DNA from: Minisyncoccota bacterium
Lineage (GTDB): Bacteria > Patescibacteriota > Minisyncoccia > Phycocordibacterales > SBAW01
Assembly: GCA_035546615.1 (NCBI GenBank)
Contig: DASZWM010000006.1
Location: 32,001 to 96,000 of the forward strand
Reading direction: 5' to 3'
Length of the DNA: 64,000 nt
A program made the translations under genes and the position numbers. This document shows, piece by piece, positions 12,439-64,000 of the stretch. The notes under the pieces were generated by a model. The model saw nothing but the letters and a program-made list of their open reading frames with translations. It did no database searches and was not told the origin of the DNA. Every line of letters begins with the position of its first letter. The first letter of the stretch is position 1.

Positions 12439-19293
<6,855 letters not shown>

Positions 19294-37942: not shown

Positions 37943-38127
37943 CGCTCCTTCATGCGACTAATGGCAGTTTAAGAATAGGCCAAGTTCATGAAGCAGGACA
38001 CGAAGCTGCTTTTTGGCAAGCTTGTGGTCGTGTGGATATGGAGTAGGGTATATATAAGAGGTGCATAGTGCACACCTAGGCTGTTCGTTTTATTAACGTG
38101 CGTAAGACGTTTCCTTATAAATTACAT

Positions 38128-41100
38128 ATGAAATCCTGGTACTCCCTTACGGGAATAGTGCTCGCTCTTGTCGTTGTTGCAGGCGCGATGACTTTTTCTA
38201 TTAGCAACGCGCTCGCGATAACCCCCTCGACGGCCGTATACGATTCGACTACGGACCCGCTCCCAGGCAATGTCGCCAGCCTCGGTTTTGAGGCTGTAAG
38301 CACATCGGCCTTCGGCGATTACGTGCATCTTGAGCCCGGCACCGGCCGCGACCTCAAGACCGTGACTGTAACGATGAGCGATTGGGCGCTTGAATCCCAG
38401 AACACTTCTTTCTGCACCAGCTATCCCGCGAAGTGCGTTGACGGCGGCTACATACACCCGCTCACCATCAATATTTACGCCACAAGCTCCGACTCGGACT
38501 TGCCTGGCCCGCTGCTTGCAACAAAAACCCAGGATACTTTTATCCCTTGGCGCCCTGAAGCCGACGAAGAGTGCGGCACTGGTTGGAAAGATGAAGAGGA
38601 TAACTCCTGCTATAACGGCTTTGCCTTTAACGCCGTTTTTGACCTCAGCAGCCTGAATGTAACGCTCCCTGACGATGTTATTGTCAGCATCGCGTACAAC
38701 ACCGCTGATTATGGCGCAGCGCCAATCCATGAGAGCGGACCGTACAACTCGCTTAACGTCGCTATTCCTGATAACCAGCCGGTTGCGGTAGGCAGCGATG
38801 ACAGCGACAACAAGGTATTTTGGGACGCAACCTACCTTGGCCGCACCCCAGGCCTCCGCCAGGATACGGACTGGAGCCCGAACGGCACGGTAGCGATGCG
38901 CATTGATGCGACCGCTCCGGACGTCACCGTTACCATAGACAAGTACATCAACGGAGTGAAAGCGACTACTGTGAACACCAATAGCGCCTCCTTCCCGATG
39001 AAGTCCACCTGGGATGCCGACAATATCGGCGCAGGCACGGGCACCTATACCCTTGATGCGGGCAATTCGTACGAGGCGGTTACTTCCGAGATGACCTCGG
39101 GCGCCGACTACAAGACGCATGAGACCTCGCCTGAGGAATGCACCGCCGACTATCCGTACAAGCTGAAGGGCTACAGCGTTGGAGACTCCCTCGGACAGGC
39201 CGAAACTGCCGATATAGAGAGCGACGAGCCTGAATTCGAGAACATCACGACGAACAAGTACGTCATCGTGTGGAACGTTACCTGCCCTCCAGCGCCGACG
39301 CTCCTGACTCCCGCCAACGACAGCACCCTCACTACGGCTACGGCATTGAGCGCGGATTGGACGGACGTGACGGATTGGGCGGGACCAATAACGTACCTCT
39401 ACGAATCTTCAAATTCCGCCTCTACCAACTCTGACGGCTCGTTCACCTCGCCGGTCTATACCTCCGGACCGCTTGCCACGTCGGAAATCCCCACGACCGG
39501 CACGCCGGAAGGCACCTACTACTGGCACGCAAAGGCGGTGGATAATGCGGGCAACTCAGGCCCCTGGGCTAACGCATTCAAAGTAACCATAGATAACAAT
39601 CCGGATACGACTCCTCCGGCAGTAACCGTTACGCCGGTTCCGGGAAGCACGCTGAGCGGTACTGTTACTTTCACTATTACGGTGACCGACAACAAGCCTC
39701 TTGACCTAAGCAAGCTCACCAACATCTGGTCATACTTGTACAATTCTGAGCCGCCGCAGGCCTCGCAAGGCGCAGGCGTTGCCTTCTCGGCTACGGGCGA
39801 CCCGAAGGTAGTGCAGGGTACTCTCACCGTAGACACGACCTTGCTTGCCAACGGCACTGCATGGCTCGATGTGGGCCAGCTTGAGGATGCAGCAGGCAAC
39901 AAGTCAGGCGCCACAACCGACAACTACTTCCACGATTACACTATCCAAAACGACGAGGCGCCGATATGCAGCGAGCCGAATGACGTAGAGGCGTCGGTCA
40001 GTAGCGACACTACCACTACGGTAGATGAAGGCGCGAATTCAGTCATCATCACCTCCATCCCGGGCGTACTCCCTGGTGCATGGTCTGCAAATATACCGGG
40101 AGCATCCTGGATCTGGAGCGACATGCCGACCGAGGAGAACAACTACTCCAATACCGTTGGACCGAAGGTGTTCACGAAGACCTTCGAGATCGACGGCATT
40201 CCGCAGGACTCTACGCTTGATATCGCGGCAGACAATACCTACACCGTCATGGTGAACGGCAATGTCATCGATACCGGCACATCCGGCACCGATACCGACA
40301 ACTTCAGCTCGGCAGACTCATGGACCATTCCGGCGGCTGACCTGGTAACGGGAGAGAATACCCTTACCATTACGGTAACCAATACCGAGGCCCCGGAAGG
40401 CTATACGGGCCCGAACCCTGGCGGCCTGCTTTACAGCCTCACGGTTCGCAGCCAGAACTGCACAACGCCTGAGCCGACAGCGCTAAAGGTCCATATCTTC
40501 AAATATCTCTCGGCGGACGAGGATATACAGCAGATACCCAACAACGCTGAGGATGTACCGATTTTCCCGATGAAGGCGAATTACGACATCGCGGGCGTTG
40601 GCAGCAACTTAGGCGAAGGCGACCCCTATAATCTTGGCGACGGCGGCGGGGTAGGCGGCAGCGACGGCGGCCTCAAATGGGCTGCAAATACTATTGCGCT
40701 TAGCCCGGGCGACTACTATGCCACGCACGAGGTCACTGACACGGAAAGCAGCCCTGTAGTGTCTGAGTGTGTACCGGGCAAATATAAGCTTCTTGGTTAC
40801 CAAGTAGGAGACTCTCTTGAAGATGCTCAGAATGCTGAAATCTCTACCACACCACCGTCATTCCCTAACATTCAGGAAGACAAGTACGTAATCGTAGTCA
40901 ACGAGGCCTGCGACGCGCCGACCCCGGAAGAGCCGGAGACTGGCTCGCTCACGATCGTTAAGCACACCATAGGCGGCGACGATACGTTTAACTTCAGCAT
41001 TACCCAGGGAGAACATGCAACTTCCACAAGCGTTGTTACCGATAACTTTAGCGGACAGACCGATCCGATAACGCTTCCTGCTGGTAACTACAACGTCACT

Positions 41101-42096
41101 GAAAACGTTCCGGAAGGCTGGACACTGAACGAATCAGAGGGACCGCGCTGCACCTACGATGGTGAAAGCGAGGGTAGCGCTATAGAGAACGGCGAGAATA
41201 TCACAATCGATAACGGAGACGGCGTAACCTGCATCTTCACTAATACTAAGGATGTTGAGGAAGGTTCCGATAATACCGCTCACGATCTTGCTCTTACCAA
41301 AACGCTGGACGACAACACTCCTGACGAGGGCCAAACGATCACCTATACTCTTACCGCAATAAATGAAGATGAATCCGGTCCCGCAACGAACGTATCGGTC
41401 ACCGATGTCCTCCCAGCTGGCCTGACCTTCGTCTCCTACAGCGCCAGCCAGGGCAGCTATGCCTCGGGAACTGGCATCTGGAACATCGGAACGCTCGGCT
41501 CGATAGGGAGTGCCACGCTTGCAATAACCGCGACGGTTAATGCGGATACCGCAAGCACCACGATTACGAACACAGCAAGCGTGAGCGCCGAAGATAATAC
41601 CGACTACAATGCGGGAAATAACTTCGATAGCGTATCGCTTATCGTAAATCGGCCCGCTGAAGAAGAGACGACCAGCGACGAACCAGAATCCTTCACTCTT
41701 CAGAGCAACGGCAATCGTCGAAACGGCTCGGGTGGAGGTAACAACAACTCCGGCGGGCTCGTCCTCGGCGCCTCGACCGACGCTCCTGCAGATGCGCAGG
41801 TATGCTCGACGCCGCTCCTGACCACGTATATGCGAATGGGTATGGCCAATAGCCCGGCCGAAGTCATGAAGCTTCAGACTTTCCTCAATGGGGAGATGAA
41901 CTCAGGGCTTCCGGTAACCGGCTTCTTCGGCACAATGACCGAGGATGCAGTTAAGGCTTTCCAGCTCAAGTACACGAGCGACATCCTTGCTCCCTGGGGC
42001 ATTACCCAGCCGACAGGATACGTCTTCAAGCGCACCCAGTGGAAGATAAACATGATCTACTGCTCGGCGCTTGATATCCCCGCACCGCAGGTATAA
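38128..42096 (+). CDS. Giant secreted repeat-containing surface protein (~1320 aa): signal peptide, Ig-like and DUF11/CARDB-like repeat domains, internal ~50-aa repeats, C-terminal peptidoglycan-binding-like domain.
   Basis: Signal/TM MKSWYSLTGIVLALVVVAGA. Thr/Asp/Ser-rich. Repeated module KL.GY.VGDSL..A..A.I......F.NI...KYVIV.N..C..P appears twice. DUF11-like LTKTLDDNTPDEGQTITYTLTAINE...VTDVLPAGLTFVS. C-terminal PG_binding_1-like GFFGTMTEDAVKAFQLKY. The track start is 38098. Confidence 0.7.
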   Translation: MKSWYSLTGIVLALVVVAGAMTFSISNALAITPSTAVYDSTTDPLPGNVASLGFEAVSTSAFGDYVHLEPGTGRDLKTVTVTMSDWALESQNTSFCTSYPAKCVDGGYIHPLTINIYATSSDSDLPGPLLATKTQDTFIPWRPEADEECGTGWKDEEDNSCYNGFAFNAVFDLSSLNVTLPDDVIVSIAYNTADYGAAPIHESGPYNSLNVAIPDNQPVAVGSDDSDNKVFWDATYLGRTPGLRQDTDWSPNGTVAMRIDATAPDVTVTIDKYINGVKATTVNTNSASFPMKSTWDADNIGAGTGTYTLDAGNSYEAVTSEMTSGADYKTHETSPEECTADYPYKLKGYSVGDSLGQAETADIESDEPEFENITTNKYVIVWNVTCPPAPTLLTPANDSTLTTATALSADWTDVTDWAGPITYLYESSNSASTNSDGSFTSPVYTSGPLATSEIPTTGTPEGTYYWHAKAVDNAGNSGPWANAFKVTIDNNPDTTPPAVTVTPVPGSTLSGTVTFTITVTDNKPLDLSKLTNIWSYLYNSEPPQASQGAGVAFSATGDPKVVQGTLTVDTTLLANGTAWLDVGQLEDAAGNKSGATTDNYFHDYTIQNDEAPICSEPNDVEASVSSDTTTTVDEGANSVIITSIPGVLPGAWSANIPGASWIWSDMPTEENNYSNTVGPKVFTKTFEIDGIPQDSTLDIAADNTYTVMVNGNVIDTGTSGTDTDNFSSADSWTIPAADLVTGENTLTITVTNTEAPEGYTGPNPGGLLYSLTVRSQNCTTPEPTALKVHIFKYLSADEDIQQIPNNAEDVPIFPMKANYDIAGVGSNLGEGDPYNLGDGGGVGGSDGGLKWAANTIALSPGDYYATHEVTDTESSPVVSECVPGKYKLLGYQVGDSLEDAQNAEISTTPPSFPNIQEDKYVIVVNEACDAPTPEEPETGSLTIVKHTIGGDDTFNFSITQGEHATSTSVVTDNFSGQTDPITLPAGNYNVTENVPEGWTLNESEGPRCTYDGESEGSAIENGENITIDNGDGVTCIFTNTKDVEEGSDNTAHDLALTKTLDDNTPDEGQTITYTLTAINEDESGPATNVSVTDVLPAGLTFVSYSASQGSYASGTGIWNIGTLGSIGSATLAITATVNADTASTTITNTASVSAEDNTDYNAGNNFDSVSLIVNRPAEEETTSDEPESFTLQSNGNRRNGSGGGNNNSGGLVLGASTDAPADAQVCSTPLLTTYMRMGMANSPAEVMKLQTFLNGEMNSGLPVTGFFGTMTEDAVKAFQLKYTSDILAPWGITQPTGYVFKRTQWKINMIYCSALDIPAPQV

Positions 42097-42124
42097 CAGG
42101 TCTTGGTATCTGATCGAATAAGCT

Positions 42125-42152
42125 AAAAAGCCCCCGATTGGGGGCTTTTTAG
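42125..42152 (+). terminator. Rho-independent terminator.
   Basis: AAAAAGCCCCCGATTGGGGGCTTTTT. Confidence 0.6.
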
Positions 42153-42333
42153 CGTTCGGATAAAGGATACGCATAACGGACACCAGAAGCCACAGCGATG
42201 AAAGGAGTGTCAATATTGACCCCCTTGTGCAGCCGGTGTAGCACTATAGGAGCAGCACATCGGAGGCTCTTTCGTTTGGCTTACGCAGCAAGTTTGTTCA
42301 GGGTTTTTACACATTATCTTTAGCATTACGCAT

Positions 42334-43224
42334 ATGTCACTTTCCGTTCTGGGCAAGCGGCTTTCAGCCATTGCCTTCGCGTTCGTCATTATAGGCTTCC
42401 TGGCGGGCGCCCAGACTGCTTCCGCCCATACCGCCACCATCGACGGCGGCACGCACGTAGACGCCACACCAGGCCAGACGATACACGTCTCGGTCGACAG
42501 CAATCTCGACTCGGGTGCGGGTGTAAAGGGTATCAATTGGTGGTTCGACGGGAGCGCGCCTACTTGCGCGGACGTTACCGACTTCACCAATACCAATCCT
42601 TATCATGTGCACCAGGCTGTCACGACTACCTTCGATGTGACCGCTCCGACGGAGCCGGGTACGCACTCCTTCTACTACCAGATAACGTACTCCGACGACT
42701 GCGCTACCTTACAGGGCTCGGATCAGGACAACGGCCTTACGGTTACCATCCCGGAGCCGCCGCCTGTGCCTACCTGCACCGATACGCAAGTGCTCGATAC
42801 TTCGAACAATACGTGCGTAGATTTGAAACCCGCCCATCACCGCAGCAGCCGCGGCGGCACGACCAACCCGAATAACGGCGGAGGACAGGTGCTCGGCGCA
42901 GAGACCGAGACGCCGTCGGAGGGCGAGCAGTGCTCGACCGCGCTCCTTTCCACCTATATGCGCATGGGGCAGCCGAACGATTTGGCGGAGGTCGCCAAGC
43001 TGCAGGTATTCCTCAACGGTGAAATGGGTTCAGACCTTGCAGTAACCGGCGTCTTTGATGCCGCGACCGACGCGTCCGTGCGCGCCTTCCAGGCTAAGTA
43101 CGCCAGCGAGGTGCTCGCGCCCTGGGGCATTACGGAGCCTACCGGCTACGTGTACAAGCTCACCCAGTGGAAGATAAACATGATCAACTGCGCGGGGCTC
43201 AATGCTCCCAAGCCGCAGGTGTAA
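42334..43224 (+). CDS. Secreted protein (296 aa) whose C-terminal ~110 aa are paralogous to the C-terminus of the giant protein.
   Basis: Signal peptide, then the C-terminal GQVLGAETETPSEGEQCSTALLSTYMRMGQPNDLAEVAKLQVFLNGEM...WKINMINCAGLNAPKPQV. This is ~65% identical to residues ~1215-1332 of the upstream protein. A terminator follows at 43248-43275. Confidence 0.6.
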   Translation: MSLSVLGKRLSAIAFAFVIIGFLAGAQTASAHTATIDGGTHVDATPGQTIHVSVDSNLDSGAGVKGINWWFDGSAPTCADVTDFTNTNPYHVHQAVTTTFDVTAPTEPGTHSFYYQITYSDDCATLQGSDQDNGLTVTIPEPPPVPTCTDTQVLDTSNNTCVDLKPAHHRSSRGGTTNPNNGGGQVLGAETETPSEGEQCSTALLSTYMRMGQPNDLAEVAKLQVFLNGEMGSDLAVTGVFDAATDASVRAFQAKYASEVLAPWGITEPTGYVYKLTQWKINMINCAGLNAPKPQV

Positions 43225-43472: not shown

Positions 43473-44654
43473 TCAGGCCTCTTCGGAGGCGGAGGGAGGC
43501 GTCTGCTCCGCGCGCCCGTGGGAGAAGTCTATGGACATCTCGCTGCGGACGCCCGGAGGGCTCAGGCGCTCCTCCTGCTGCTCCTTGGTGCGGCCTACCG
43601 GCAGGGAAACGGAAACGGTCGTGCCGTGGGTGCGGGCGCTTTCGATGCTTATCTTGCCGTGATGGCCGCGCACTATCTCGCTGACTATGGCGAGCCCGAG
43701 GCCGGAGCCGCCGTGGCGTATGTTGCGCACGCGGGAGGTGTCGGCGCGGTAGAACGGCTCGAATATGTGGGCCAGGTCCTTCTGCGATATGCCGATGCCG
43801 TTGTCGGAAACCGAGAAGATGATAGAGCCCCGGTAGTCGGGCCGGATGAGGATGCTGACGACCCCGCCGGAGCTTTTCTGGGTATAGTTGATGGCGTTCT
43901 TGATGATGTTGCTGACCACCTGCTCAAGCCCCGTGGCGTTGCCCCAGACGACATCGTAGCCCTCCTTGCGGAACGTGAGCTCGATATTGCGCTCGCGCGC
44001 GAGCGCGTCCAGGCGGCCGATGACGGTATCGGCGATGCCGCTAAGCGACACGTTGCTGAGCTGCATGCGCTCGGGGCGGTTCAGGGTATTGAGCGAAAGG
44101 AGATTGTTTATTATCTCGGAAATGCGGTCGAGCTCTCGCACGATGTCGCCCAGCACGTCCTTCGTGGTCGGCGGCAGGCCGTCGTCCATGAGGGCCACCT
44201 CGGTCGAGGTCTTGATGACCGACAGCGGCGTGCGAAGCTCGTGCGCCACGTTGCTGATGAAAAGCTTCTGGTAATGGAGCGTATTACGGGCGGGAAGCAG
44301 CATGTATTTGCTGAACAGGAGCGCGAACACGACGGCCACGCCCACCAGGCTGAAGAACACGAACCATACGCTCGCGCCCTGGATGGAGGCGATGGAGGAG
44401 GTCAGCGGCCCGGAATTGCCGGAGCCGCTCACGATGGCCTGAATGTTCTCTATTATCGAGCGCACGACGGCCTCGTTGGTGTAGTGGAGCGCGAACCAGA
44501 ACAGCGCCACGCAGGCGAGCACCAGGCCCGACAGGAGCAGGGCGATATTGACGCTCGCGCGCAGGAATATGTCAGCTTCGTACTTCTCCCGCCAGACGGT
44601 AGCCCACGCCGCGAACCGTTTCGAATACAGCCTCAGCAGAGTCATCGGTTCCAT
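43473..44654 (-). CDS. Sensor histidine kinase: 2 TM, HisKA and HATPase_c.
   Basis: H-box VAHELRTPLSVI. N, G1 and G2 boxes (IIKNAINYT, SDNGIGIS, GGSGLGLAIV). The track start overlaps the upstream response-regulator gene by ~83 nt. Confidence 0.85.
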   Translation of the reverse strand: MEPMTLLRLYSKRFAAWATVWREKYEADIFLRASVNIALLLSGLVLACVALFWFALHYTNEAVVRSIIENIQAIVSGSGNSGPLTSSIASIQGASVWFVFFSLVGVAVVFALLFSKYMLLPARNTLHYQKLFISNVAHELRTPLSVIKTSTEVALMDDGLPPTTKDVLGDIVRELDRISEIINNLLSLNTLNRPERMQLSNVSLSGIADTVIGRLDALARERNIELTFRKEGYDVVWGNATGLEQVVSNIIKNAINYTQKSSGGVVSILIRPDYRGSIIFSVSDNGIGISQKDLAHIFEPFYRADTSRVRNIRHGGSGLGLAIVSEIVRGHHGKISIESARTHGTTVSVSLPVGRTKEQQEERLSPPGVRSEMSIDFSHGRAEQTPPSASEEA

Positions 44655-45273
44655 GATCGTTTCCTAATTTTTTACGGAGGTTCTTCATATGCACGTCCAA
44701 CACGTTCGACCACGACAGCGCGTTGAAGTCCCACACATGGTCAAAGAGCTTCTCGCGCGAGAGTACCACGCCGGGCTCCCGCATAAAGCACTCCAGCAGG
44801 GAGAATTCCTTCAGGGTAAGCGGTATCTCCTTGCCTTCGCGGCGCACCACGCGGGCCGCCGTGTCCATCTCGAGGGGCCCGACCTTGAGAACGGTCGCCT
44901 GGAGCGTCGTCGGCCGGCGCAGGACGGAATTGATGCGGGCCAGGAGCTCCTCGAATGAGAAGGGCTTCACGATGTAGTCGTCGGCGCCCTTGTTGAGCAG
45001 GTCTACCTTGTGCTCGGTCTCGTTGCGGGCGGTCAGTATGATGATGGGGGTCGTAACGTTCTCCTTGCGGACGGATTCGGTTATCTGCGCGCCGTCCAGG
45101 CCCGGAAGCATGAGATCAAGGAGGATCAGATCATACTCGTTCTTATAGAGAAGGATGCGGTTGCGCGCCTTCTCCGGATCGGATATCCAGTCCACCGCGA
45201 ATCCCTTGAGGGTCAGGCCCTTCTTGAGCGCCTGGGCGAGCTTCTCCTCGTCTTCGACTATGAGTAAGTGCAT
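44572..45273 (-). CDS. OmpR-family response regulator: receiver plus winged-helix DNA-binding domain.
   Basis: Receiver (LLIVEDEEKL...DLILLDLMLPGLDG) and a C-terminal wHTH (TLKEFSLLECFMREPGVVLSREKL...VRGVGYRL). Confidence 0.9.
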   Translation of the reverse strand: MHLLIVEDEEKLAQALKKGLTLKGFAVDWISDPEKARNRILLYKNEYDLILLDLMLPGLDGAQITESVRKENVTTPIIILTARNETEHKVDLLNKGADDYIVKPFSFEELLARINSVLRRPTTLQATVLKVGPLEMDTAARVVRREGKEIPLTLKEFSLLECFMREPGVVLSREKLFDHVWDFNALSWSNVLDVHMKNLRKKLGNDHGTDDSAEAVFETVRGVGYRLAGEVRS

Positions 45274-45579: not shown

Positions 45580-46356
45580 TTATGCAGCCGCTCCCGAACG
45601 GTGCGCCTGCAGGATGTCCTTGATGAGCGCCGCCGTTTCGTCGGGGCCGAAGACCTCATGGGCGTGCACGCCGGTATCTATGACCACCGAGTCGTTGCCG
45701 CCTTCGCTCAGCGCGTCGCCCACGTACAGCATTTCCGACACCGATACGCCGGTCATCTCGACAAGCTGCCTGATACCGTAGGCCTTGTTCACTCCCTTTT
45801 TGGTGATGTCGACGGAGGTGGTGGCGTTGGTGCGGATCTCGAAGTCCGGCAGGCGCCGCATGAGCGCGGCGCGCAGGGGAGCGCGCTTTTCGCCGCTCGG
45901 GTCCCATTTCTGCTTTTCCTCGATGGGCGCCTTCTGGCCGAGGCCGGAGAACGTTATCTGCGCGCCGCGGTCCTCCACCCGCTCGCCCCATACGGGCGAC
46001 GGCTCCTGCGCGAAGCCGGTCTCCTCCATTGATTCCTTGAGCGCCTGCATGATGCGGCCGCGCTCGAACGCGTTGAACGACTTGTCGTACCGGAGCTTCC
46101 AGGCGCCGTCGCGGTAGACGAAGCATTCCGCCGCGTTGGTGGGGAACAGATACAGCTTCTCGAAATGCGCGCTTTCGGGGAACGCCGGGAGCATCTGCGT
46201 CTGGAACTGGGCGAGGCTGGCGCCCGAGAGCACCGCGACCGGCATTTTCTGCAGAAGCTCGGCGAGCAGGGCCCCCATTTCGGGCGACAGGGGCCGCTTG
46301 CTTTCGGCAAGCGTGCCGTCCAGGTCGAAGGCCGCGAGTTTCGGTTTGAAATTCAT
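45580..46356 (-). CDS. HAD-IIB hydrolase resembling eukaryotic-type phosphomannomutase.
   Basis: FDLDGTL motif I, and a C-terminal YVGDALSEGGNDSVVI matching the PMM GNETSPGGNDFEIF region. Confidence 0.6.
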   Translation of the reverse strand: MNFKPKLAAFDLDGTLAESKRPLSPEMGALLAELLQKMPVAVLSGASLAQFQTQMLPAFPESAHFEKLYLFPTNAAECFVYRDGAWKLRYDKSFNAFERGRIMQALKESMEETGFAQEPSPVWGERVEDRGAQITFSGLGQKAPIEEKQKWDPSGEKRAPLRAALMRRLPDFEIRTNATTSVDITKKGVNKAYGIRQLVEMTGVSVSEMLYVGDALSEGGNDSVVIDTGVHAHEVFGPDETAALIKDILQAHRSGAAA

Positions 46357-46359
46357 GGC

Positions 46360-48261
46360 TTAGTTGAGATTGTCCGGCAGGAGGATCTTCAAAAGCTTCT
46401 TAAGCGATACTTTCGCGACCCCGAGCACCGTGTCGGCGCCGCCGTAGTAGATGAAGATCGTGTCGCCCCGCAGGACCGAGCCGCAGGAGAACACCGCGTT
46501 GCGCACCAGGCCCACGCGCTCGTACTCCTCCATCGGCTCGAATATGGTGTCGACGCTGCGGGAGAGTATTACCGAAGGAGTCGCGAGATCAAGCAGGACG
46601 GCGCCGAGCCGGTAGGTCGAGGTCTTTGATACGCCGTGGTAGATAAGGAGCCAGCCCTTGGGGGTTTTCATGGGCGGGCCGGCGATGCCTATCTTCTGGC
46701 TGTCCCACATGCCCTGGCGCGGGCCCATCATCTCGATGCAGCGCGTAAGCCGGCTCTTCTTGAAGTCGAGGCTGTCGAGGAAGTCCGCGCACATCTGCGG
46801 GTCGATGCGGTGCATGAGCATGTACTGGCCGCCTATGGTCTCAGGCAGGATGCAGGTGTCCTTGTCCTGTACCGGGTCGGGGGTAATAAGCTGGGGCGGC
46901 GACCACTTTTCCCATTTGTGCGCCGTAAAATCCTTGACCGAAATGCTCGAAAGCGCCGCGCGCCACGGGTTCTGGCCGTCGAAGGCCGTATAGACCATAT
47001 ATATAGTGTCGTCGATGCGGGTGAGCCGCGGGTCCTCGCATCCGCGCGATTCGAAGTCCGCCCGCGGCTGGTAGATGGGGATGTCGGAGCGCTCGGTTAT
47101 CTTGATGCCGTTCTTCGTAGCGGCGTAGCCCATGCGCGAAACGCCGTCCTCGCCCTGCGCCCGGTAGACCAGGTGTATGGTGCCGTCGATATCTATCGCG
47201 GCGGAATTGAAGACCGCCTTGCTCTCCCACGGATGCTCCGGAACGGGCCTCAATATCGGATTTTCCTTGGCGCGCACCGCAAGCTCCACCCGGCGGGAGG
47301 GGACCATCGCCGACAGGAGGTCGCTGAGGCTCAGCGACGCCCGCGCGCAGACGGTATCGGCGCCGCCGTAGTAGATGTCCACGCGGCCGTTCTTCTGGAG
47401 CATTGCGCCGGTGGGGAAGACGATGTTGGGCGCCACGCCATAGCGCTCGTAAATTTCCTCCGGCACCATGATGGGGCCCTTGGTTCGTCCGGCTATCGTG
47501 CGGGGGTCCGCGAGGTCAAGCAGGAGCGCCTCGATGCCGAACACCCGCTCGCCCCCGCCGAAGTAGTTCTGGATATAGGAGTAGAACATGAGCCAGCCGT
47601 CCTTCGTCTTGATGGGCGCCGAGCCCACCTCGACATGGTCGTGGTCGAAGCGCAGGGGGTTTATCGTATGCTCGCCTATTTCCGCGTGCCACTTCTCCCA
47701 GAACGAGAGGTCCCACAGCTCCTCCATCCTGTCGCACTGGACGATGGCTATCTTGGCGGGCGGCTCGTCGGTGTGCGCCGTTACGATAAGCGTTATCTTG
47801 CCGTTCACGCGCTCGGGGAAGAGCGCCATTGCCTTCGCGTTGAAGGGCGTCACCAAATGCTTCTCCTCGACGGTCTCCAAATCGTTGGAGATCGCCACCG
47901 CGACCTTGATATTGCCCGGGCCGAACGGCTGGCCGCCGAGAGCGGTGTAGAAAATGTAATATTTGCCTTCGAAGTACGTGACGCGCGGGTCCTCGCAGCC
48001 GTATTTTTCCCACACTTCGGTGGGGATGATGAATTGCCGGCGGTTCTGGAAGTGCTTGCCGTCAAGGGACAAGGCTTTCCCGATGGTCGAGAGTCCTGCG
48101 GGCGTCATGAGCGCGTCGGGGCGGCCCAAAGCGCGGTACAGAACGTGCGTTATTGTGCCGACTTTGACCGGGCTCGGATTGAAGGTGCCGCGCGCCTCCC
48201 AATGGCGGTCGGCCATGGGCGCGATGATGGGGTTATGCGAGCTGCGCTTGATAACGTACAT
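46360..48261 (-). CDS. Tandem double GH130-family (beta-mannoside phosphorylase-like, DUF377) protein.
   Basis: Two repeats of the GH130 pattern: NPIIAP...WEARGTFNPSPV...GCEDPRVTYFEGKYYIFYTA, and again NPILRPVPEHPWESKAVFNSAAI...GCEDPRLTRIDDTIYMVYTA. Confidence 0.7.
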   Translation of the reverse strand: MYVIKRSSHNPIIAPMADRHWEARGTFNPSPVKVGTITHVLYRALGRPDALMTPAGLSTIGKALSLDGKHFQNRRQFIIPTEVWEKYGCEDPRVTYFEGKYYIFYTALGGQPFGPGNIKVAVAISNDLETVEEKHLVTPFNAKAMALFPERVNGKITLIVTAHTDEPPAKIAIVQCDRMEELWDLSFWEKWHAEIGEHTINPLRFDHDHVEVGSAPIKTKDGWLMFYSYIQNYFGGGERVFGIEALLLDLADPRTIAGRTKGPIMVPEEIYERYGVAPNIVFPTGAMLQKNGRVDIYYGGADTVCARASLSLSDLLSAMVPSRRVELAVRAKENPILRPVPEHPWESKAVFNSAAIDIDGTIHLVYRAQGEDGVSRMGYAATKNGIKITERSDIPIYQPRADFESRGCEDPRLTRIDDTIYMVYTAFDGQNPWRAALSSISVKDFTAHKWEKWSPPQLITPDPVQDKDTCILPETIGGQYMLMHRIDPQMCADFLDSLDFKKSRLTRCIEMMGPRQGMWDSQKIGIAGPPMKTPKGWLLIYHGVSKTSTYRLGAVLLDLATPSVILSRSVDTIFEPMEEYERVGLVRNAVFSCGSVLRGDTIFIYYGGADTVLGVAKVSLKKLLKILLPDNLN

Positions 48262-48297
48262 AGTTTCGTGAAGTGATTATACCTTAGCTTCGGCTTC

Positions 48298-49485
48298 CTA
48301 CATTTTTACCGGCTTCAATTTTGCCTGCTCGTGGTTCTTTAATTTGCGCAAAAAGTCGCGCAAGTCGGTTTTGGCCGCAGCGACGTATTTGTCGCCGCCG
48401 CCGTAGTAGACGATAAGGTCCTTCCCGAGCACGACCGCGCCGGAAACATAAATGATGCCGGGCTTCCAGTCGTTCTCGTACCAGGCGTCGGGCGCGAGTA
48501 TCGGCTGCACGGCGCGATAGAGCACCTTTGTCGGGTCGTCGCGGTCAAGCAGCATTGCGCCGAGCTTGTAGCGGTTGGGGTCGTTCTTGTCCATCGCATG
48601 GTAGAGGAGCAGCCAGCCCTCGGAGGTCTTGATAGGCGGGGAAGCGGCGCTGCGGGTCCGGTAGTGCCAGGCGACCGTATGGTCGGGCAGGCGCTGAGGG
48701 TCGGGCGCTTCCTTGGCCGTAGGAGCCTCAGTCATGCTGAGCGTATCCATGAACTTGATATGCACCCGCGCCGGGTCCCCCATATCGAGGTTATGGAAGA
48801 GCGCGAACTTGCCGCCTATCTTCTCCGGGAATAGCACCCAGTTCTTCTGCCGCTCGTTTGGGCGCGAGAGGTAGTCGAAATGGCTCCAGAGGCCGCGCGC
48901 GTGCAGCAGGTTATACTCGTCGGTCGAGGTGAACGCCACGCGCATGGTATCCCAGCCGTTGAACATGTTGAAGGTCATGTAGACGCGGCCCTCGATGACC
49001 ACCGCGCGCGGGTCTTCGCACCCGCCCCAGCCGCCGCCCGAGCCGTAAGAAACCGTGTCGTAGGTGAGCCGCGCGGGGGAGGTGAAGGGGTGGTGGCTGC
49101 GGGCTTCCTGATAATTTTCAGCCGAGTAGACCGGCTCGGCACTGCGTTGGTCGAAGTGGATGCCGTCGGCGCTCGAGGCGTAGCCGATGCGCGAAATGCC
49201 GTCGCGACCGAGCGCCCGGTAGAGCACGTGCACGCGGCCGCCGGCCACTATCGCCGCCGGATTGAACACCGCCTCCGATTCCCACCAGTGCTCGGGCACG
49301 GGCTTGAGCACCGGGTTCTCGTTGAAGCGGCTGAGCCTGATGGGCCGCGCGCTTTCGAAGAACCAGAACGCGATGAGCGCGAAGAATCCAAGGAAGCACG
49401 CGACAAGCGCGATAACGAGCCCCAGGCTTCCGCCTGCGACCCCTATCCCTATAACTGCCGCTCCCAGTGCGTTATCCATGGTCAA
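48298..49485 (-). CDS. GH130-family protein with an N-terminal transmembrane anchor.
   Basis: The hydrophobic N-terminus is followed by NPVLKPVPEHWWESEAVFNPAAI...GCEDPRAVVIEGRVYMTFN...GWLLLYHA. Confidence 0.7.
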   Translation of the reverse strand: MTMDNALGAAVIGIGVAGGSLGLVIALVACFLGFFALIAFWFFESARPIRLSRFNENPVLKPVPEHWWESEAVFNPAAIVAGGRVHVLYRALGRDGISRIGYASSADGIHFDQRSAEPVYSAENYQEARSHHPFTSPARLTYDTVSYGSGGGWGGCEDPRAVVIEGRVYMTFNMFNGWDTMRVAFTSTDEYNLLHARGLWSHFDYLSRPNERQKNWVLFPEKIGGKFALFHNLDMGDPARVHIKFMDTLSMTEAPTAKEAPDPQRLPDHTVAWHYRTRSAASPPIKTSEGWLLLYHAMDKNDPNRYKLGAMLLDRDDPTKVLYRAVQPILAPDAWYENDWKPGIIYVSGAVVLGKDLIVYYGGGDKYVAAAKTDLRDFLRKLKNHEQAKLKPVKM

Positions 49486-49503
49486 AATGCGCTCATCCTA
49501 CGT

Positions 49504-49857
49504 TCACGTGCGCCCATACCGGTCCTGAAAGCGCGTGATGTCTTTCTCGTCGAACTCGCCCAGCGCTATTTCCAGAAACACCAGCCCGTGCGGGCCGCCC
49601 GCGACCCGGTGCTTTACGCCGCGGCTTACGAAGAAATCCTCTCCCGGCTTCACGGCGATTTTTTTGTCGCCGATGACCACCGCGCCCGAGCCGGCGAGGA
49701 TGTGCCATTCCTCGTCGCGATGCTCGTGCGCCTGGAGCGACAGCTCCTCGTTCGGCTTTACCGTGATTATCTTCACCGTCGATTTCTCGTTCAGCGTAAA
49801 GCGCTCGAACTGCCCCCACGGGCGAACATCCTTCGCATAATTCGGAAGGCCCTTCAT
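49504..49857 (-). CDS. Cupin-domain protein related to the C-terminal cupin of type II mannose-6-phosphate isomerases.
   Basis: RPWGQFERF...IKIITVKPNEELSLQAHEHRDEEWHILAGSGAVVIGDK. Confidence 0.6.
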   Translation of the reverse strand: MKGLPNYAKDVRPWGQFERFTLNEKSTVKIITVKPNEELSLQAHEHRDEEWHILAGSGAVVIGDKKIAVKPGEDFFVSRGVKHRVAGGPHGLVFLEIALGEFDEKDITRFQDRYGRT

Positions 49858-49912
49858 GCATTCAGTATACGCCCACCGGGCGCTTTCCTTTGCATATATA
49901 GAGTGGAAAACT

Positions 49913-50416
49913 CTACGAAGCGGCCGCGGGAACGATAAGCCCGTCTAAAAGCTTTAGAAAATACTCGTGATGGTTCTCAAAGCCTATTTCCTTGTCGTGC
50001 CAGAAGGGGTGCGCTTCAACGGTATATTCATAGTGCCCCCGCACCTCGCCGTCCTCGAACAGCCTGATGTGGTACTGATGCTTGAAGGTGGGCGAATACC
50101 GCAGGCTGATGACCTCGCCGCGGTCCAGGAGCGCGACGAGCTGCCTGCCGTAGCCTTTGGACACAAGGTGCTCGACCAGCGTCCGCGGCGTGACGTCCGG
50201 CGCCAGCGTCCCCAGCAGGAACCGCTGCCTGCCGTCGGGGCGGTATTTTTCGTACTTGCGCATATAGCCTATATGCGCAAGAAAATTGCGGGCGTACGGG
50301 TGCAGGGGTCTCAGCACGTACCACAGGCAGTATTTCATCCGGTCGGGGAACCCCGCGGGATATACCATCTGCGAGACAGGGATCGTCCTGAGCCAGTGTT
50401 TGAGTGACGCGTCCAT
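49913..50416 (-). CDS. Hypothetical protein, 167 aa.
   Basis: ORF only. It sits upstream of, and on the same strand as, the cupin/GH130/HAD cluster. Confidence 0.35.
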   Translation of the reverse strand: MDASLKHWLRTIPVSQMVYPAGFPDRMKYCLWYVLRPLHPYARNFLAHIGYMRKYEKYRPDGRQRFLLGTLAPDVTPRTLVEHLVSKGYGRQLVALLDRGEVISLRYSPTFKHQYHIRLFEDGEVRGHYEYTVEAHPFWHDKEIGFENHHEYFLKLLDGLIVPAAAS

Positions 50417-50454: not shown

Positions 50455-51057
50455 GTGCCCTCGATAGAAACCATCACGGCGCTGATGCTCGCGTACCGGT
50501 ACCTCATCATCGTGCCGCTGTCCCTGGTGGCGCAGCCGCTTGTCAGCATGATATCGGGGGCGCTGGCGCGCCTGGGATACTTCGACGTCCTCATCCTCTA
50601 CGGCATCGTCGTGGCGACCGCAATCATCGGCGATATCGCCTGGTACTGGATAGGCTACCACTGGGGCGAGCGGTTCGTCCGGCGCTTCGGGCGCTACTTC
50701 AGCATCACGCCCAAGCACGTGCACGGGGTCAAGAAGATATTCAGCCGCTACCACACCTCCATTCTTCTGGTGTCGAAGGTGACCAACGGCGTGGGCCTGG
50801 CGTGGGTAACGCTGTTTACCGCCGGCATGACGCGCATTCCGTTCGGCCGCTACCTGGCGCTCAACATAGCGGGCGAGCTTATCTGGTCGGCCATGACGCT
50901 GTCCGTCGGCTACTTCTTCAGCCACCTCTATATCACGGTCCACGACGTGCTGGGGAAGGTGTTCCTGACGGCGGCCATTGCGCTTGCCGCGGCGCTTATC
51001 ATCGGCTTCTGGATATACGTCCGCCGCCGCATCGCGGCCGAGTTCGAGCAGGCCTAA
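50455..51057 (+). CDS. DedA-family (VTT/SNARE-associated) membrane protein.
   Basis: Characteristic DedA core (GYHWGERFVRRFGRYF...SRYHTSILLVSKVTNGVG...). Confidence 0.8.
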   Translation: MPSIETITALMLAYRYLIIVPLSLVAQPLVSMISGALARLGYFDVLILYGIVVATAIIGDIAWYWIGYHWGERFVRRFGRYFSITPKHVHGVKKIFSRYHTSILLVSKVTNGVGLAWVTLFTAGMTRIPFGRYLALNIAGELIWSAMTLSVGYFFSHLYITVHDVLGKVFLTAAIALAAALIIGFWIYVRRRIAAEFEQA

Positions 51058-51060
51058 AGC

Positions 51061-51831
51061 TTATTTGAGTACGAAAAAGAAGAAGAGAAGCGCCGCGATG
51101 ATACGGTAGACGCCGAAGGGGACGAACGTCCGCGTGCGCACGAACCTGAGCAGGAATTTGATGGAAAAGAGCGCGACGACGAAGGATGTCGCGAAACCGG
51201 CGGCAAGTATCCCGAACTGGTCCGGAGAGAAAGCCGAGGCGTTCTTGAGGAGGTCGAGTCCGGTGGCCGCCAGCATCGTCGGAACCGCCAGCAGGAACGA
51301 GAACTCGACTATCGCCACGCGCGTCAGCCCCAGGCCCAAGCCTCCGATAATGCTGGCGGCCGAGCGCGACACGCCGGGCACTATCGCAACCGACTGGAAT
51401 ACCCCGATCAGCGCCGCCTGGCGCCAGGACATCGCGGATATCTCGCGTACCGCATCCGCTTTCTCGCGGTGGAAGTATTCAAACGCGATGAGAACGACGC
51501 CGCCCAAAAGCATCGCCCACAGCACAACCGTTTCATTTCCGAGCAGATATGTTTTTATGACCTTATAAAGCGCGAGACCGATGAGTCCGGTCGGAAGAAA
51601 GGCTATGGCGACGCGCTTCAATATGCGGACATTTAAGAAAGATCTCCAGTACACCGCCACTACCGACGCGATCGCGCCCAGCTGGATGATTATCTCGAAG
51701 CTCTTTTGAAATTCCGTCTGGCTTAGCCCCAAGAGCGAGCTGGCGAGTATGAGATGCCCGGTCGAGGAGATGGGAAGGAACTCCGTAACGCCCTCGACGG
51801 CGCCCAGAAGGATGCTGTGAAGCGGGGTCAT
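51061..51831 (-). CDS. uppP: Undecaprenyl-diphosphate phosphatase.
   Basis: EFLPISSTGHL signature and PGVSRSAASIIGG motif. Confidence 0.95.
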   Translation of the reverse strand: MTPLHSILLGAVEGVTEFLPISSTGHLILASSLLGLSQTEFQKSFEIIIQLGAIASVVAVYWRSFLNVRILKRVAIAFLPTGLIGLALYKVIKTYLLGNETVVLWAMLLGGVVLIAFEYFHREKADAVREISAMSWRQAALIGVFQSVAIVPGVSRSAASIIGGLGLGLTRVAIVEFSFLLAVPTMLAATGLDLLKNASAFSPDQFGILAAGFATSFVVALFSIKFLLRFVRTRTFVPFGVYRIIAALLFFFFVLK

Positions 51832-60269: not shown

Positions 60270-60342
60270 TCCGCGGTAGCTCAATGGTAGAGCAGCTCCC
60301 TGTTAAGGAGTTGGTTGTAGGTTCGAGTCCTACCCGCGGAGC
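60270..60342 (+). tRNA. tRNA-Asn (anticodon GUU).
   Basis: Manual cloverleaf: acceptor TCCGCGG/CCGCGGA, D-arm GCTC-aatggta-GAGC, anticodon stem GCTCC/GGAGT with loop CTGTTAA (GTT), T-arm GTAGG-ttcgagt-CCTAC. No CCA is encoded. Confidence 0.85.
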
Positions 60343-61883
60343 ATAGAGCTGATTTTCGAATCCGAAGAAGCTTTTACCTTATGGGTAAAGGCTTTTTTCG
60401 GTTCGAAAGTATTTTCATCAAAATCAAGTCTTTCGTATAACTTTCGAACTGGGGTCTTTAGCTCATATTCCACTTTTCCGTCCTTCAGGGTGATGTGCTT
60501 AAAGAGATGCTTCAGGAGCATTCGCTTTTCAGCAGGCGTTCTCTTTGAGTAAATTTCCTTGGCTCTGGTGGCAAGTTCAAGAATGTTAAGTCCAAGTTCA
60601 AAGTATTCAGCCTCTTGGTCTTTCAGGCGGTCTAGCTGTGCAGTAAGCGCCTTCTGTTCTTCCTGAAGCATCTGGTTCTTGCCAGCCCAGAATTCATTCG
60701 AGATATCACCAGAAAGTTTATCGTCATAAAGCCTGTCTATCTTAATCTGCACTGCTTTGTATTGGGCGGTGAGGCTATTGATGACTGATTCCTTGTAAGC
60801 AATTTCCTCCGAATGATTTGCCTTGATGCGTTCACGAATTGCCTCAACATCCTTCTTGCTTAACTTGGCAAAAACATCCATGACGCTGACCAAGCCCGCC
60901 TCGATAACTTCTTCCCGTGTGTACTTCTTCTGTTTGCAGTCTTTGTAGTGATTGCAATGGCAATAAACATGGCCTTTCTGAATCTCGGAAGTAATGCTGC
61001 CACCACACTCACCGCATGAAATCATCTTCGAAAAAAGGAATTCCTTTCGAAGATAGTAAGGTGCTTTCTTTCTGATTCTTATTTCCTGAACTTGGTCATA
61101 AGTTTCTTTCGAGATAAGCGGCTCATGGTCACCCTTCATCAGTTTTCCTTTCCATGTAAACCAACCATAGTTGAAGGTATCACCCAACATTCGTTCAATC
61201 TGGCTCTTATAAAGCTTCTTACCGTAACGAGTACGAACGCCACTATCCCAAGCCATTTGAGCAATCGCCTTCATGGAGTATTGGCCAGTGGCATACGATT
61301 CAAGAAGTTTCTTTACTGCCAAATGTGTGTCAGGGTCTTTGATGAAATGCTTTCTTCCTTTCTCACCAACACTCAAATATCCATACTTAAATGAGCCTGG
61401 GTACATACCCTGTGATGCCTTCTCGCTCAAACCCTTATGCACTTCTTCAGAAAGGTTGTTGGTATAGAACCGAGCAATAGCCACTTTCATATCCCAGACA
61501 AGGTTCTCGTGCGCACGTGTATTCTTGCTTACGATGAAATTCTCTTTGACGAAGTGAACCGTTCGGTCAGGGGAAGACTGTACCCAGTCGTTTACAACAG
61601 CTGCATCTTTTAAGTTGCGAGTAAGACGGTCAATCTTCTCACAAAGAATATTCTCGATATCGTGCTTCTCAACATAAGCAAGCATTTCATAAAAAATGGT
61701 TCTGATTTGTTTACCACTCGCAGATTCAGTAATCCTGAATATCTTCGCCACCTCAAATCCTTTCTTTGAGGCGTATTCTTCAAGCAGCTTCTGCTGCGCA
61801 TCAAGAGAATAACCCGTGTCTTCTTGTTCACGTGACGATACTCGGCAGTAGATTACACATTTAGTCCTCATGTTGGTTGTCAT
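60330..61883 (-). CDS. Large serine recombinase (integrase): resolvase catalytic domain, recombinase domain, zinc ribbon and coiled-coil.
   Basis: Catalytic VIYCRVSSREQ (Ser nucleophile), the ...DRLTRN motif, a Cys cluster CGECGGS...CHCNHYKDC, and a C-terminal coiled-coil. Its 3' end overlaps the tRNA-Asn 3' end. Confidence 0.9.
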   Translation of the reverse strand: MTTNMRTKCVIYCRVSSREQEDTGYSLDAQQKLLEEYASKKGFEVAKIFRITESASGKQIRTIFYEMLAYVEKHDIENILCEKIDRLTRNLKDAAVVNDWVQSSPDRTVHFVKENFIVSKNTRAHENLVWDMKVAIARFYTNNLSEEVHKGLSEKASQGMYPGSFKYGYLSVGEKGRKHFIKDPDTHLAVKKLLESYATGQYSMKAIAQMAWDSGVRTRYGKKLYKSQIERMLGDTFNYGWFTWKGKLMKGDHEPLISKETYDQVQEIRIRKKAPYYLRKEFLFSKMISCGECGGSITSEIQKGHVYCHCNHYKDCKQKKYTREEVIEAGLVSVMDVFAKLSKKDVEAIRERIKANHSEEIAYKESVINSLTAQYKAVQIKIDRLYDDKLSGDISNEFWAGKNQMLQEEQKALTAQLDRLKDQEAEYFELGLNILELATRAKEIYSKRTPAEKRMLLKHLFKHITLKDGKVEYELKTPVRKLYERLDFDENTFEPKKAFTHKVKASSDSKISSMLRG

Positions 61884-63842: not shown

Positions 63843-64000
63843 TTCAAAAGCACGTGACCACAACCTATCAAGCTGTTGTCGCTTCTTGGTAGGAACACCA
63901 GCCCATGTTTCCCTGACCGCCTTTTCTTCCAAAGCCTCAATCCTTTCATGTAGGTCAAAGTATTGATTCATACGCCCCTTCTTTCCTCTGATGTTTTTAT

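Follow-up and report, generated by a model that had tools for sequence, protein, structure and literature searches.

A conserved four-gene cassette of Paceibacterota that joins three GH130 domains to a predicted mannose-phosphate mutase and isomerase

Overview of the cassette

The 64,000-nucleotide stretch of a Minisyncoccota genome analyzed here (contig DASZWM010000006.1, positions 32,001 to 96,000; hereafter the window) carries a cassette of four genes spanning about 4.3 kb. They encode a cupin, a protein with one GH130 domain (the single GH130), a protein with two fused GH130 domains (the double GH130) and a HAD-family protein. The cassette is conserved in the Paceibacterota as a probable operon, and the clustering of its genes is far beyond chance. 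We consider it probable that the encoded proteins form a β-1,2-mannoside module centered on mannose 1-phosphate (Man-1-P) and linked to fructose 6-phosphate (Fru-6-P) by a mutase and a mannose-6-phosphate isomerase (PMI).

An earlier note, made from the letters of this DNA, had described the region as a salvage cluster of five same-strand genes, the fifth encoding a 167-residue hypothetical protein (hyp167). All five open reading frames (ORFs) are present on the minus strand (Table 1) and their domain calls were confirmed by Pfam and NCBIfam. The gaps between successive genes from the cupin to the HAD gene are 18, 36 and 3 nt, making an operon plausible, while 55 nt separate the hyp167 and cupin genes and 306 nt follow the HAD gene. 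Scans for promoters and terminators gave signals no stronger than those in shuffled sequence, and an Rfam search of the cassette region identified no riboswitch or other RNA element. The double GH130, hyp167 and HAD proteins are 100% identical to NCBI proteins assigned to "MAG TPA: Candidatus Paceibacterota" (locus tags VHD55_03065 for the double GH130 and VHD55_03080 for hyp167), in which the cassette proteins are annotated as "hypothetical" or "HAD-IIB family hydrolase".

Table 1. Positions in the window of the cassette genes, their domains and the adjoining genes.
Feature	Positions	Strand	Remarks
hyp167, 167-aa hypothetical protein	49913-50416	-	ORF
Cupin, 117 aa	49504-49857	-	PF01050, type II PMI C-terminal family
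Single GH130, 395 aa	48298-49485	-	PF04041
Predicted membrane-anchor segment, residues 5-46 of single GH130	49348-49473	-	hydrophobic; hydropathy scan
Double GH130, 633 aa	46360-48261	-	PF04041, two stretches
N-terminal GH130 domain, residues 1-322 of double GH130	47296-48261	-	
C-terminal GH130 domain, residues 323-633 of double GH130, and stop codon	46360-47295	-	
HAD, 258 aa	45580-46356	-	PF03332 / TIGR01484 HAD-IIB
DedA, VTT domain	50455-51057		flank of cassette
UppP/BacA	51061-51831		flank, followed by hybrid kinase and SET-domain gene
Two-component system: OmpR-type response regulator and histidine kinase	43473-45273	-	flank

Conservation of the cassette in related genomes

A scan of one genome per species identified 307 stretches with a relative of the double GH130, in samples from environments as varied as groundwater, lakes and peatland. 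We kept 80 of these loci, in which the double GH130 was 51–82% identical to that of the window, and viewed them with 20-kb flanks, the source genome itself being viewed through the 64-kb window. The 80 loci were labeled mostly as Paceibacterota, Kaiserbacteria, Adlerbacteria, Nomurabacteria, Taylorbacteria and Parcubacteria, although many had generic labels or that of "Saccharibacteria". The counts for each gene come from tblastn searches of these loci (designated by L numbers) with the proteins of the window. The single GH130 gene adjoined the double GH130 gene in about 70 of the 80, with several of the others ending at a contig edge; a cupin was present in 67 and a HAD of the phosphomannomutase (PMM) family in 54. 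The genes were ordered either cupin-single-double-HAD, as in the window, or HAD-cupin-single-double, and were separated by a few bases or overlapped.

Clustering of all the neighboring ORFs in the 80 loci revealed that, beyond the cassette, only housekeeping genes recurred. The conserved neighbors included no transporter, no binding protein and no secreted glycanase. The DedA and UppP genes that flank the cassette in the window were considered as conserved partners and rejected, as they adjoined it in only 17/80 and 10/80 loci, respectively, and the adjoining DedA proteins had 21–34% identity to that of the window, except in L005 (65%). As a separate observation, locus L066 has two double-GH130 paralogues in tandem (7897-9798 and 10001-11911).

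Three GH130 domains with different predicted active sites

Matches to PF04041 were strong for both proteins (E 2.7e-34 for the single GH130 and 8e-94 over two stretches for the double GH130), and the whole double GH130 scored 450.2 bits against the NCBIfam model for β-1,2-mannobiose phosphorylase, whose cut-off is 450. The best solved match of the single GH130 was Teth514_1788 (E 2.9e-42), which was also matched by the N-terminal domain (E 7.3e-41) and the C-terminal domain (E 1.3e-63; 4.1e-60 to Teth514_1789) of the double GH130. An AlphaFold2 (AF2) model of the double GH130 (pLDDT 88.3, pTM 0.68) had only GH130 proteins as its top Foldseek matches, with a TM-score of 0.90 to Teth514_1788. 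The N- and C-terminal domains are 29.5% identical to one another and 28.8% and 33.1% identical, respectively, to the single GH130; judged by their sequences, the three domains are old paralogues. A search with the N-terminal domain identified 2829 relatives, which included stand-alone N-type proteins with a TD / DHxE / YS signature.

To assign specificity and mechanism we applied published residue rules (Table 2 of PMC7660257; PMC4599007; PMC12814180). Numbering was set by HMMER alignments, in which the chain index of Uhgb_MS equals that of the paper and the chain index of BT3780 (5a7v) equals that of the paper plus 4. The alignments were checked in a mixed MAFFT alignment with BT3780, 4ONZ, 3QC2, Teth514_1788 and Uhgb_MS, and conservation was counted over 80 double-GH130 and 70 single-GH130 orthologues. 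The catalytic proton donor of GH130 enzymes is an Asp in an (E/Y)DPR motif, Asp104 in UhgbMP and Asp142 in BT3780 (PMC4599007, PMC7660257). All three domains have an Asp in the BT3780 Asp142 column, and it was kept in 78/80 sequences in the N-terminal domain (Asp91), 80/80 in the C-terminal domain (Asp410) and 70/70 in the single GH130 (Asp158), in agreement with the earlier note's count of three GH130 domains.

A Glu beside the catalytic Asp, together with a Lys at subsite +1 (Lys199/Lys184), is the marker of β-1,2 specificity (PMC7660257, PMC4599007, PMC12814180), and a Tyr/Arg pair is that of β-1,4 specificity (PMC7660257, PMC12814180). The Glu/Lys pair was identified in each domain, as Glu90/Lys143 (N-terminal), Glu409/Lys467 (C-terminal) and Glu157/Lys214 (single), in at least 96% of the orthologues. 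All three domains therefore carry the residue signature predictive of β-1,2, not β-1,4, specificity, a result at odds with the earlier proposal of the N-glycan core or mannan, both β-1,4-linked, as substrates.

The domains differed in the residues that distinguish phosphorylases from hydrolases. Phosphorylases bind phosphate through a residue pair, Arg168/His231 in UhgbMP numbering, and lack a catalytic base. The C-terminal domain has this pair (Arg485 in 78/80 and His542 in 79/80 orthologues) and a Gly in the column of Glu268, a catalytic base of BT3780. The residues kept in 74–80 of the 80 orthologues were Arg367, Glu409, Asp410, Lys467, the adjoining Asp468, His484, Arg485, Lys523, His542 and Asp610. 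By this signature the C-terminal domain is predicted to be a canonical β-1,2-mannoside phosphorylase, and on balance we think it likely to be the only true phosphorylase of the three. The earlier description of the GH130 proteins as phosphorylases is supported by the residue criterion for this domain and not for the other two. At the position of Uhgb_MS Arg242, the C-terminal domain has Lys523, the N-terminal domain His209, and the single GH130 Arg278, one residue out of register.

In the N-terminal domain, the Arg168 position is occupied by Thr164 and the His231 position by Ser228 (each in 77/80 orthologues). This domain has instead an invariant Asp165 (80/80) and a motif Asp208-His209-x-Glu211, of which Glu211 (77/80) aligns without gaps with the Glu of the BT3780 motif TE(268)CGPPAI; every N-type sequence aligned places its Glu in this catalytic-base column. 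In the pairwise HMMER alignment Asp165 lies one residue past the Arg position, as does the other BT3780 carboxylate, Glu227 (motif WGE), although MAFFT places gaps there. The rules predict that the N-terminal domain is not a phosphorylase, and its pattern of carboxylates is of the hydrolase type.

The single GH130 resembled neither. Its position 232, equivalent to Arg168 and anchored in the alignment by the conserved His231 just before it, was Ser in 34, Asn in 20, Ala in 9, Gly in 3 and Arg in only 2 of the 70 orthologues. Although His296, at the position of the phosphorylase His231, was kept in 67/70, the Arg/His pair is lacking, and the carboxylates of the hydrolases are lacking also, with Gly or Ser in the Glu268 column and no conserved acid after His231. 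The kept residues were Glu157, Asp158, Lys214, His231, Arg278 and His296. By the same rules the single GH130 would be neither a phosphorylase nor a hydrolase. GH130 proteins with a short L2 loop and three phosphate contacts have been described as transferases with little phosphorylase activity (PMC12814180), and the single GH130 would fit the transferase branch of the decision tree in that study. β-1,2-specific GH130 phosphorylases also accept GDP-mannose (PMC12814180).

A chain-length inference based on the Trp of Teth514_1789 that blocks subsite +3 was dropped, as the aligned Trp433 was found in 7/80 orthologues.

Location of the single GH130

The earlier note had called the single GH130 membrane-anchored. 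Its N-terminus does contain a hydrophobic stretch of 42 residues, followed by an Arg-rich sequence; as an anchor this stretch is a hydropathy prediction. The net charge is +2 after the hydrophobic segment versus 0 before it. Hydrophobic segments of 25–47 residues were found in 28 single-GH130 orthologues. In 41 orthologues of the Nomurabacteria type (loci L025-L078) the anchor is replaced by a Lys-rich N-terminal tail of 40–90 residues, with a recurrent start, MA.LKKKK, that usually overlaps the cupin stop codon by 14 nt. Based on the anchor or the tail, the catalytic domain would lie on the cytoplasmic side of the membrane, which suggests a protein tethered to the cytoplasmic membrane face. 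The double GH130 has no signal sequence.

An example of the polylysine tail is MAALKKKKKKISTRFSKSKVGKKK, an unusual appendage for an enzyme of a glycoside hydrolase family. Possible ligands of the tail are nucleic acid, anionic lipid and other polyanions.

The HAD mutase and the cupin

The HAD protein matched TIGR01484 with 67.7 bits (cut-off 41.8) and PF03332 with 34 bits (cut-off 22.4), the latter over the C-terminal part of the profile only. The motifs FDLDGTL (DxDGT) and GGND, which had led to its being called PMM-like, were kept in 53 orthologues, and some orthologues are named "phosphomannomutase" by JGI and "HAD-IIB family hydrolase" by NCBI. The family assignment and the motifs therefore stand. 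A grouping with characterized PMMs was not obtained from sequence matches to solved structures, in which the closest relative was the α-phosphoglucomutase (APGM) of L. lactis, 4bnd (E 6.3e-44, 153.6 bits), and the PMMs were more distant (E 2e-16 to 2e-6, at most 63.6 bits). We infer that the HAD protein interconverts Man-1-P and mannose 6-phosphate (Man-6-P), and possibly also the 1- and 6-phosphates of glucose.

The cupin matched PF01050 (E 1.1e-21) over profile positions 11–116 of 116, effectively a full-length type II PMI C-terminal domain as the earlier note had recognized. Gln42, His44, Arg47, Glu49, Trp51 and His83 were kept in at least 95% of 57 orthologues; of these, the Gln-x-His, Glu and His residues are putative metal ligands. 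Against TIGR01479 (ManC/AlgA) the cupin scored 76.8 bits, far below the cut-off of 372.95 and over positions 358–467 only, so that it falls outside the bifunctional guanylyltransferase/isomerase (GMP/PMI) family. Its matches to solved structures were weak, E 6.5e-6 at best. The predicted reaction is the interconversion of Fru-6-P and Man-6-P.

Gene displacements, fusions and nucleotidyltransferases in other lineages

The predicted functions of the mutase and PMI were corroborated by non-orthologous displacement. A classical four-domain phosphoglucomutase/phosphomannomutase (PGM/PMM; PGM_PMM_I-IV) fills the mutase slot in L029, L043, L055 and L068, and a different HAD (Hydrolase_3) occupies it in 7 loci. 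In L085 a type I PMI takes the cupin slot, directly upstream of a single GH130 lacking the phosphate Arg and a double GH130. Neither a classical PGM nor a type I PMI was found in the window by tblastn. Because the HAD slot is taken elsewhere by PGM/PMM and the cupin slot by type I PMI, Man-1-P would be the hub of the system.

Further evidence came from a gene fusion. The 971-residue protein P0283 of locus L084 (6947-10916), one of the 2829 relatives of the N-terminal domain, joins single-type, N-type and C-type GH130 domains in gene order, and the presence of all three in one chain argues for their functional coupling. A ManC gene overlaps the start of the P0283 gene by 23 nt, and upstream on the same strand are genes for a GT2 glycosyltransferase (652 aa), an NAD-dependent epimerase and a UDP-Glc/GDP-Man dehydrogenase.

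A second nucleotidyltransferase was identified in the Nomurabacteria-type loci, in 27 of which a cytidylyltransferase-family gene (165 aa; L076 7114-7611, and also L031, L032, L035 and L057) opens the cassette, in many cases with 1 bp between it and the mutase gene downstream. The protein matched PF01467, and its best NCBIfam match was rfaE domain II (manno-heptose-1-phosphate adenylyltransferase), at 68 bits and so far below the cut-off of 181. It could make an unusual nucleotide-mannose. In one Nomurabacteria genome (L059), an aldose-1-epimerase family gene (PF01263; 6172-6969) lies just upstream of the cytidylyltransferase-like gene, and a DUF1361 membrane protein stands in place of the mutase.

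A proposed β-1,2-mannoside cycle and the alternatives

Based on these assignments, the cassette would encode a chain of three steps. The PMI-type cupin would interconvert Fru-6-P and Man-6-P, the HAD mutase of the PMM/PGM family would interconvert Man-6-P and α-Man-1-P, and the C-terminal domain of the double GH130 would transfer mannose between α-Man-1-P and an acceptor, yielding a β-1,2-mannoside and inorganic phosphate (Pi). All the steps would be reversible, ATP-free and cytoplasmic. The N-terminal domain and the single GH130 would act on the same β-1,2 substrate with a different site for the nucleophile. The former, being of the hydrolase type, probably uses water to trim or de-prime the chain, and the latter is most likely transferase-like, priming on a membrane-proximal acceptor, possibly with a nucleotide sugar. 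The glycan would be a small pool of β-1,2-mannan or mannoside that buffers hexose phosphate and Pi, or a membrane-linked glycan.

That this glycan is endogenous or membrane-proximal, a β-1,2-mannoside which the cell builds and recycles itself, is the explanation we favor, at a level of confidence that stops a little short of calling it probable. We favor it because importers are absent from the conserved neighborhood, because nucleotidyltransferase genes enter the operon in other lineages, because the tethered paralogue has no phosphate Arg, because the differentiated active sites recall the MTP array of Leishmania, and because known sources of β-1,2-mannan are scarce, those named being the cell-wall mannan of Candida and the mannogen of Leishmania (PMC4264767). 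A more specific form of the idea is that Paceibacterota make and recycle their own β-1,2-mannan as a counterpart of mannogen, which the tethered, Arg-less enzyme primes or elongates, the C-terminal domain phosphorolyses and the N-terminal domain hydrolyses. We regard this version as speculative and rather unlikely. The literature searched contained no description of the cassette or of mannan metabolism in bacteria of the candidate phyla radiation (CPR).

Several observations weigh against an endogenous cycle, or against parts of it. Neither a ManC gene nor a cytidylyltransferase-like gene was found in the 64-kb window by tblastn, and a literature search found no report of β-1,2-mannan in CPR bacteria. 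The hydrolase-type domain fits degradation better than storage, and transporters could be encoded outside the 64-kb window and the 20-kb flanks. The α-phosphoglucomutase of L. lactis is reportedly strictly specific for glucose 1-phosphate. The tether is not universal, the versions of the single GH130 in L085 and P0283 having none, and the equivalence of Asp165 with BT3780 Glu227, which lie in the same loop, is ambiguous in the multiple alignment. Transferase side activity in GH130 was deemed possibly a curiosity by the authors of one study (PMC12814180), and residue-based calls of phosphorylase or transferase are unreliable, since distal mutations toggle activity in GT108 (PMC10913872).

The earlier note had favored a catabolic route, and in that case β-1,2-manno-oligosaccharides imported from a host or the environment would be converted to α-Man-1-P and mannose and then, via Fru-6-P, enter glycolysis; the C-terminal domain would phosphorolyse them, the N-terminal domain and the single GH130 would hydrolyse them, and the ATP of hexokinase would be saved. 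The closest characterized enzymes, Teth514_1788/1789 and Lin0857, were interpreted as intracellular degraders of imported oligomannan (PMC4264767), CPR bacteria have been portrayed as dependent scavengers whose intracellular glycoside hydrolases are few (PMC7143001), and salvage would give the hydrolase-type domain a fitting role. A mutase and a PMI, both backed by displacement, are also exactly what is needed for reaching glycolysis. Set against this are the lack of any conserved transporter or solute-binding protein in the 80 loci, where the Thermoanaerobacter cluster has an ABC importer, the few natural sources of β-1,2-mannan for a cassette found across varied environments in over 300 species genomes, the nucleotidyltransferase genes in the operon of 27 loci and in L084, which point to sugar activation, and an Arg-less tethered paralogue with no obvious catabolic role. 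We judge salvage to be unlikely, though a serious competitor. Of the Man-1-P route in the earlier note, the hub itself stands, with the mutase and PMI displacements in its favor, and its catabolic direction is not established because no transporter is conserved nearby; the synthetic direction, which that note had mentioned as the reverse, is at least as likely.

The same genes could instead supply precursors for an envelope glycan, with Man-1-P made from Fru-6-P and the GH130 proteins recycling or remodeling β-mannosylated envelope or lipid-linked glycans for NDP-mannose. The product would then be structural and not a reserve, and this proposal overlaps with the endogenous cycle, the one difference being what becomes of the glycan. 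It would account for the ManC, GT2, dehydrogenase and epimerase genes directly upstream of the triple fusion, the cytidylyltransferase-like gene in the operon of 27 loci, the GT2 and GT4 genes near the cassette in 11–12 loci, the tether of the single GH130, and the UppP and DedA genes beside the cassette in the window and BacA beside GH130 genes in L086. A GDP-mannose salvage route proposed for Thermoanaerobacter provides a precedent (PMC4264767). We nevertheless think it improbable, since UppP and DedA adjoin the cassette in so few loci (10/80 and 17/80, the DedA proteins being of low identity in all but L005), conservation of the cassette extends to no flippase or polymerase, and the window has no nucleotidyltransferase. 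Least probable by far, in our estimate, is a loose set of housekeeping neighbors, in which the HAD would be the α-phosphoglucomutase of the cell, the cupin would not be a PMI, and neither would have a functional tie to the GH130 genes. The best solved match of the HAD, the weak solved-structure matches of the cupin and the position of the HAD gene on differing sides of the GH130 genes between lineages would all be expected if this were so. It sits poorly with the co-location of the HAD in 54/80 and the cupin in 67/80 loci, over a range of 51–82% identity and with few-base gaps or overlaps, with the filling of both slots elsewhere by analogous enzymes of the mannose pathway, and with a PF01050 match that spans the full profile.

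The hypothetical protein hyp167

The earlier note had counted hyp167 in the cluster. We rejected it as a cassette member because it adjoined the cassette in only 3/80 loci and occurs in unrelated neighborhoods in distant genomes. The protein had no Pfam or NCBIfam match, and its homologues formed 42 clusters, the named sources of which were all Paceibacterota/Parcubacteria. Its AF2 model was confident (pLDDT 91.6, pTM 0.85) and had no structural neighbor in the PDB (best E 0.77). A block of invariant residues (Gln114, Tyr115, His116, Arg118, Asp122, Glu124, Arg126, His128, Glu130, Glu134 and His140) looks like a metal or active site.

Flanking genes and other features of the window

DedA and UppP/BacA both have links with the recycling of undecaprenyl phosphate. 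Their genes lie back to back beside the cassette (50455-51831), and a BacA gene is also near GH130 genes in the unrelated locus L086 (1009-1782). On the other side of the cassette, the response regulator and histidine kinase genes overlap by 83 nt. This pair adjoins the cassette in about 10–12 related loci, upstream in L001 and downstream in the window, and could be a candidate regulator of the operon.

At 38098-43224 (+) and 12316-19293 (+) the window encodes secreted or surface proteins, of which two, of 1332 and 296 aa, have a near-identical C-terminal domain that resembles a peptidoglycan-binding domain. An ORF of 2325 aa also lies upstream. All of these are of the kind typical of large CPR surface proteins. 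Within 60270-64000, a tRNA gene (60270-60341, +) precedes a low-GC block (0.44 versus about 0.59) that contains a serine-recombinase-like ORF of 517 aa (60330-61883, -) and a LOOT RNA (RF03000, 88 bits, 63083-63199, +). This block looks like a mobile element integrated at the tRNA gene.

Comparison with known systems

The closest known counterpart is the Teth514_1788/1789 pair of Thermoanaerobacter X-514 (PMC4264767; PDB 9fj8, 7fip), which provided the best sequence and structure matches of all three domains. The two systems have in common the Glu/Lys β-1,2 signature, GH130 paralogues side by side, the absence of a signal peptide (from the double GH130 in the cassette), Man-1-P as product and a link to mannose-nucleotide metabolism. 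The two Thermoanaerobacter enzymes are separate and both full phosphorylases, whereas the cassette has a fusion of two domains, a phosphate Arg that is missing from two of its three domains, and one tethered protein. The accessory genes differ as well: the Teth514 cluster has an ABC importer, a GH5, ManC and a GT4 and is without PMI or mutase (PMC4264767), while the partners in the cassette are the PMI-type cupin and the HAD mutase.

The mannogen cycle of Leishmania, which involves the GT108 proteins MTP1-7 (Sernee et al. 2019, cited in PMC12814180 and PMC10913872), relies on the same fold and catalytic chemistry. The AF2 model of the double GH130 had TM-scores of 0.62–0.68 to MTP4/MTP2, at 13–16% identity and at ranks 36–47. 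The MTP array acts on β-1,2-mannan with Man-1-P and GDP-mannose as donors, its paralogues differ at the phosphate site and split synthesis from phosphorolysis, and a role as metabolic buffer has been proposed for it. The cassette proteins are nonetheless GH130 by sequence and fall outside GT108, whose entries ranked behind all those of GH130. The Arg-less paralogue has Ser, Asn or Ala where MTP1/2 have His, and the accessory genes are different. No such polymer is known in CPR bacteria.

The N-terminal domain resembles the GH130_3 enzymes of Bacteroides, BT3780 and BACOVA_03624 (PMC4599007; 5a7v, 3qc2), in lacking the phosphate Arg and His. It shares with BT3780 a conserved Glu in the Glu268 motif (VEVGSAPIKT versus TECGPPAIYT in BT3780) and the β-1,2 markers Lys199 and Glu141. 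In place of the first base motif of BT3780, WGE, it has (H/N)TD within a longer loop, and overall the domain is nearer Teth514 (E 7e-41) than Bacteroides (E 1e-8 to 4e-14). Furthermore, it lacks a signal peptide, is joined to a domain of the phosphorylase type and is not part of a yeast-mannan utilization locus.

The HAD protein shares with the PgmH/APGM of L. lactis (4bnd) and with PMM1/2 (HAD5) the HAD-IIB and PF03332 families, the DxD and GGND motifs, the cap-domain Arg and its length. In alignments its cap motif was of the APGM type (GQK...KQ.WDP) and not the PMM type (GRN...EER); the context of the cassette, on the other hand, argues for mannose. The cupin keeps the SLQxH..RxE.W motif, the His and the C-terminal FDExDIxRxxDxYGR of the type II PMI domain of ManC/AlgA (PF01050, TIGR01479). 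It differs from these enzymes in being a stand-alone protein of 117 aa without a guanylyltransferase domain, and in its orthologues the classical HxH motif is variable at the second His.

CPR bacteria represent a large share of bacterial diversity. They have tiny genomes, and little is understood of how they manage carbon and energy. A cassette of about 4.3 kb that over 300 species genomes have retained is likely to be central to their physiology. If its substrate is endogenous, it would provide an ATP-free sugar reserve in organisms thought to be without any. A self-made mannan, if confirmed, would give the CPR its first described carbohydrate reserve, or buffer of hexose phosphate and Pi, run by a near-equilibrium chain, and would be the first physiological role for transferase-type GH130 chemistry; the cassette is in any event a candidate physiological context for that activity.

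Multimodular GH130-GH130 entries in CAZy also have two GH130 modules per polypeptide. They are rare (4 sequences) and uncharacterized, and both modules fall in the same node of the similarity network (PMC7660257). The modules of the cassette protein, by comparison, differ in the residues that define mechanism, and their architecture is the rule across a bacterial class, making this the first widespread fusion of a hydrolase-type and a phosphorylase-type domain in GH130. With the single GH130, the cassette provides a natural set of three active sites for comparison on one β-1,2 scaffold: phosphorylase-type, hydrolase-type and Arg-less. The chemistry is familiar; the novelty lies in the fusion, in a tethered paralogue without the Arg, in the partner enzymes and in the class-wide conservation in the CPR.

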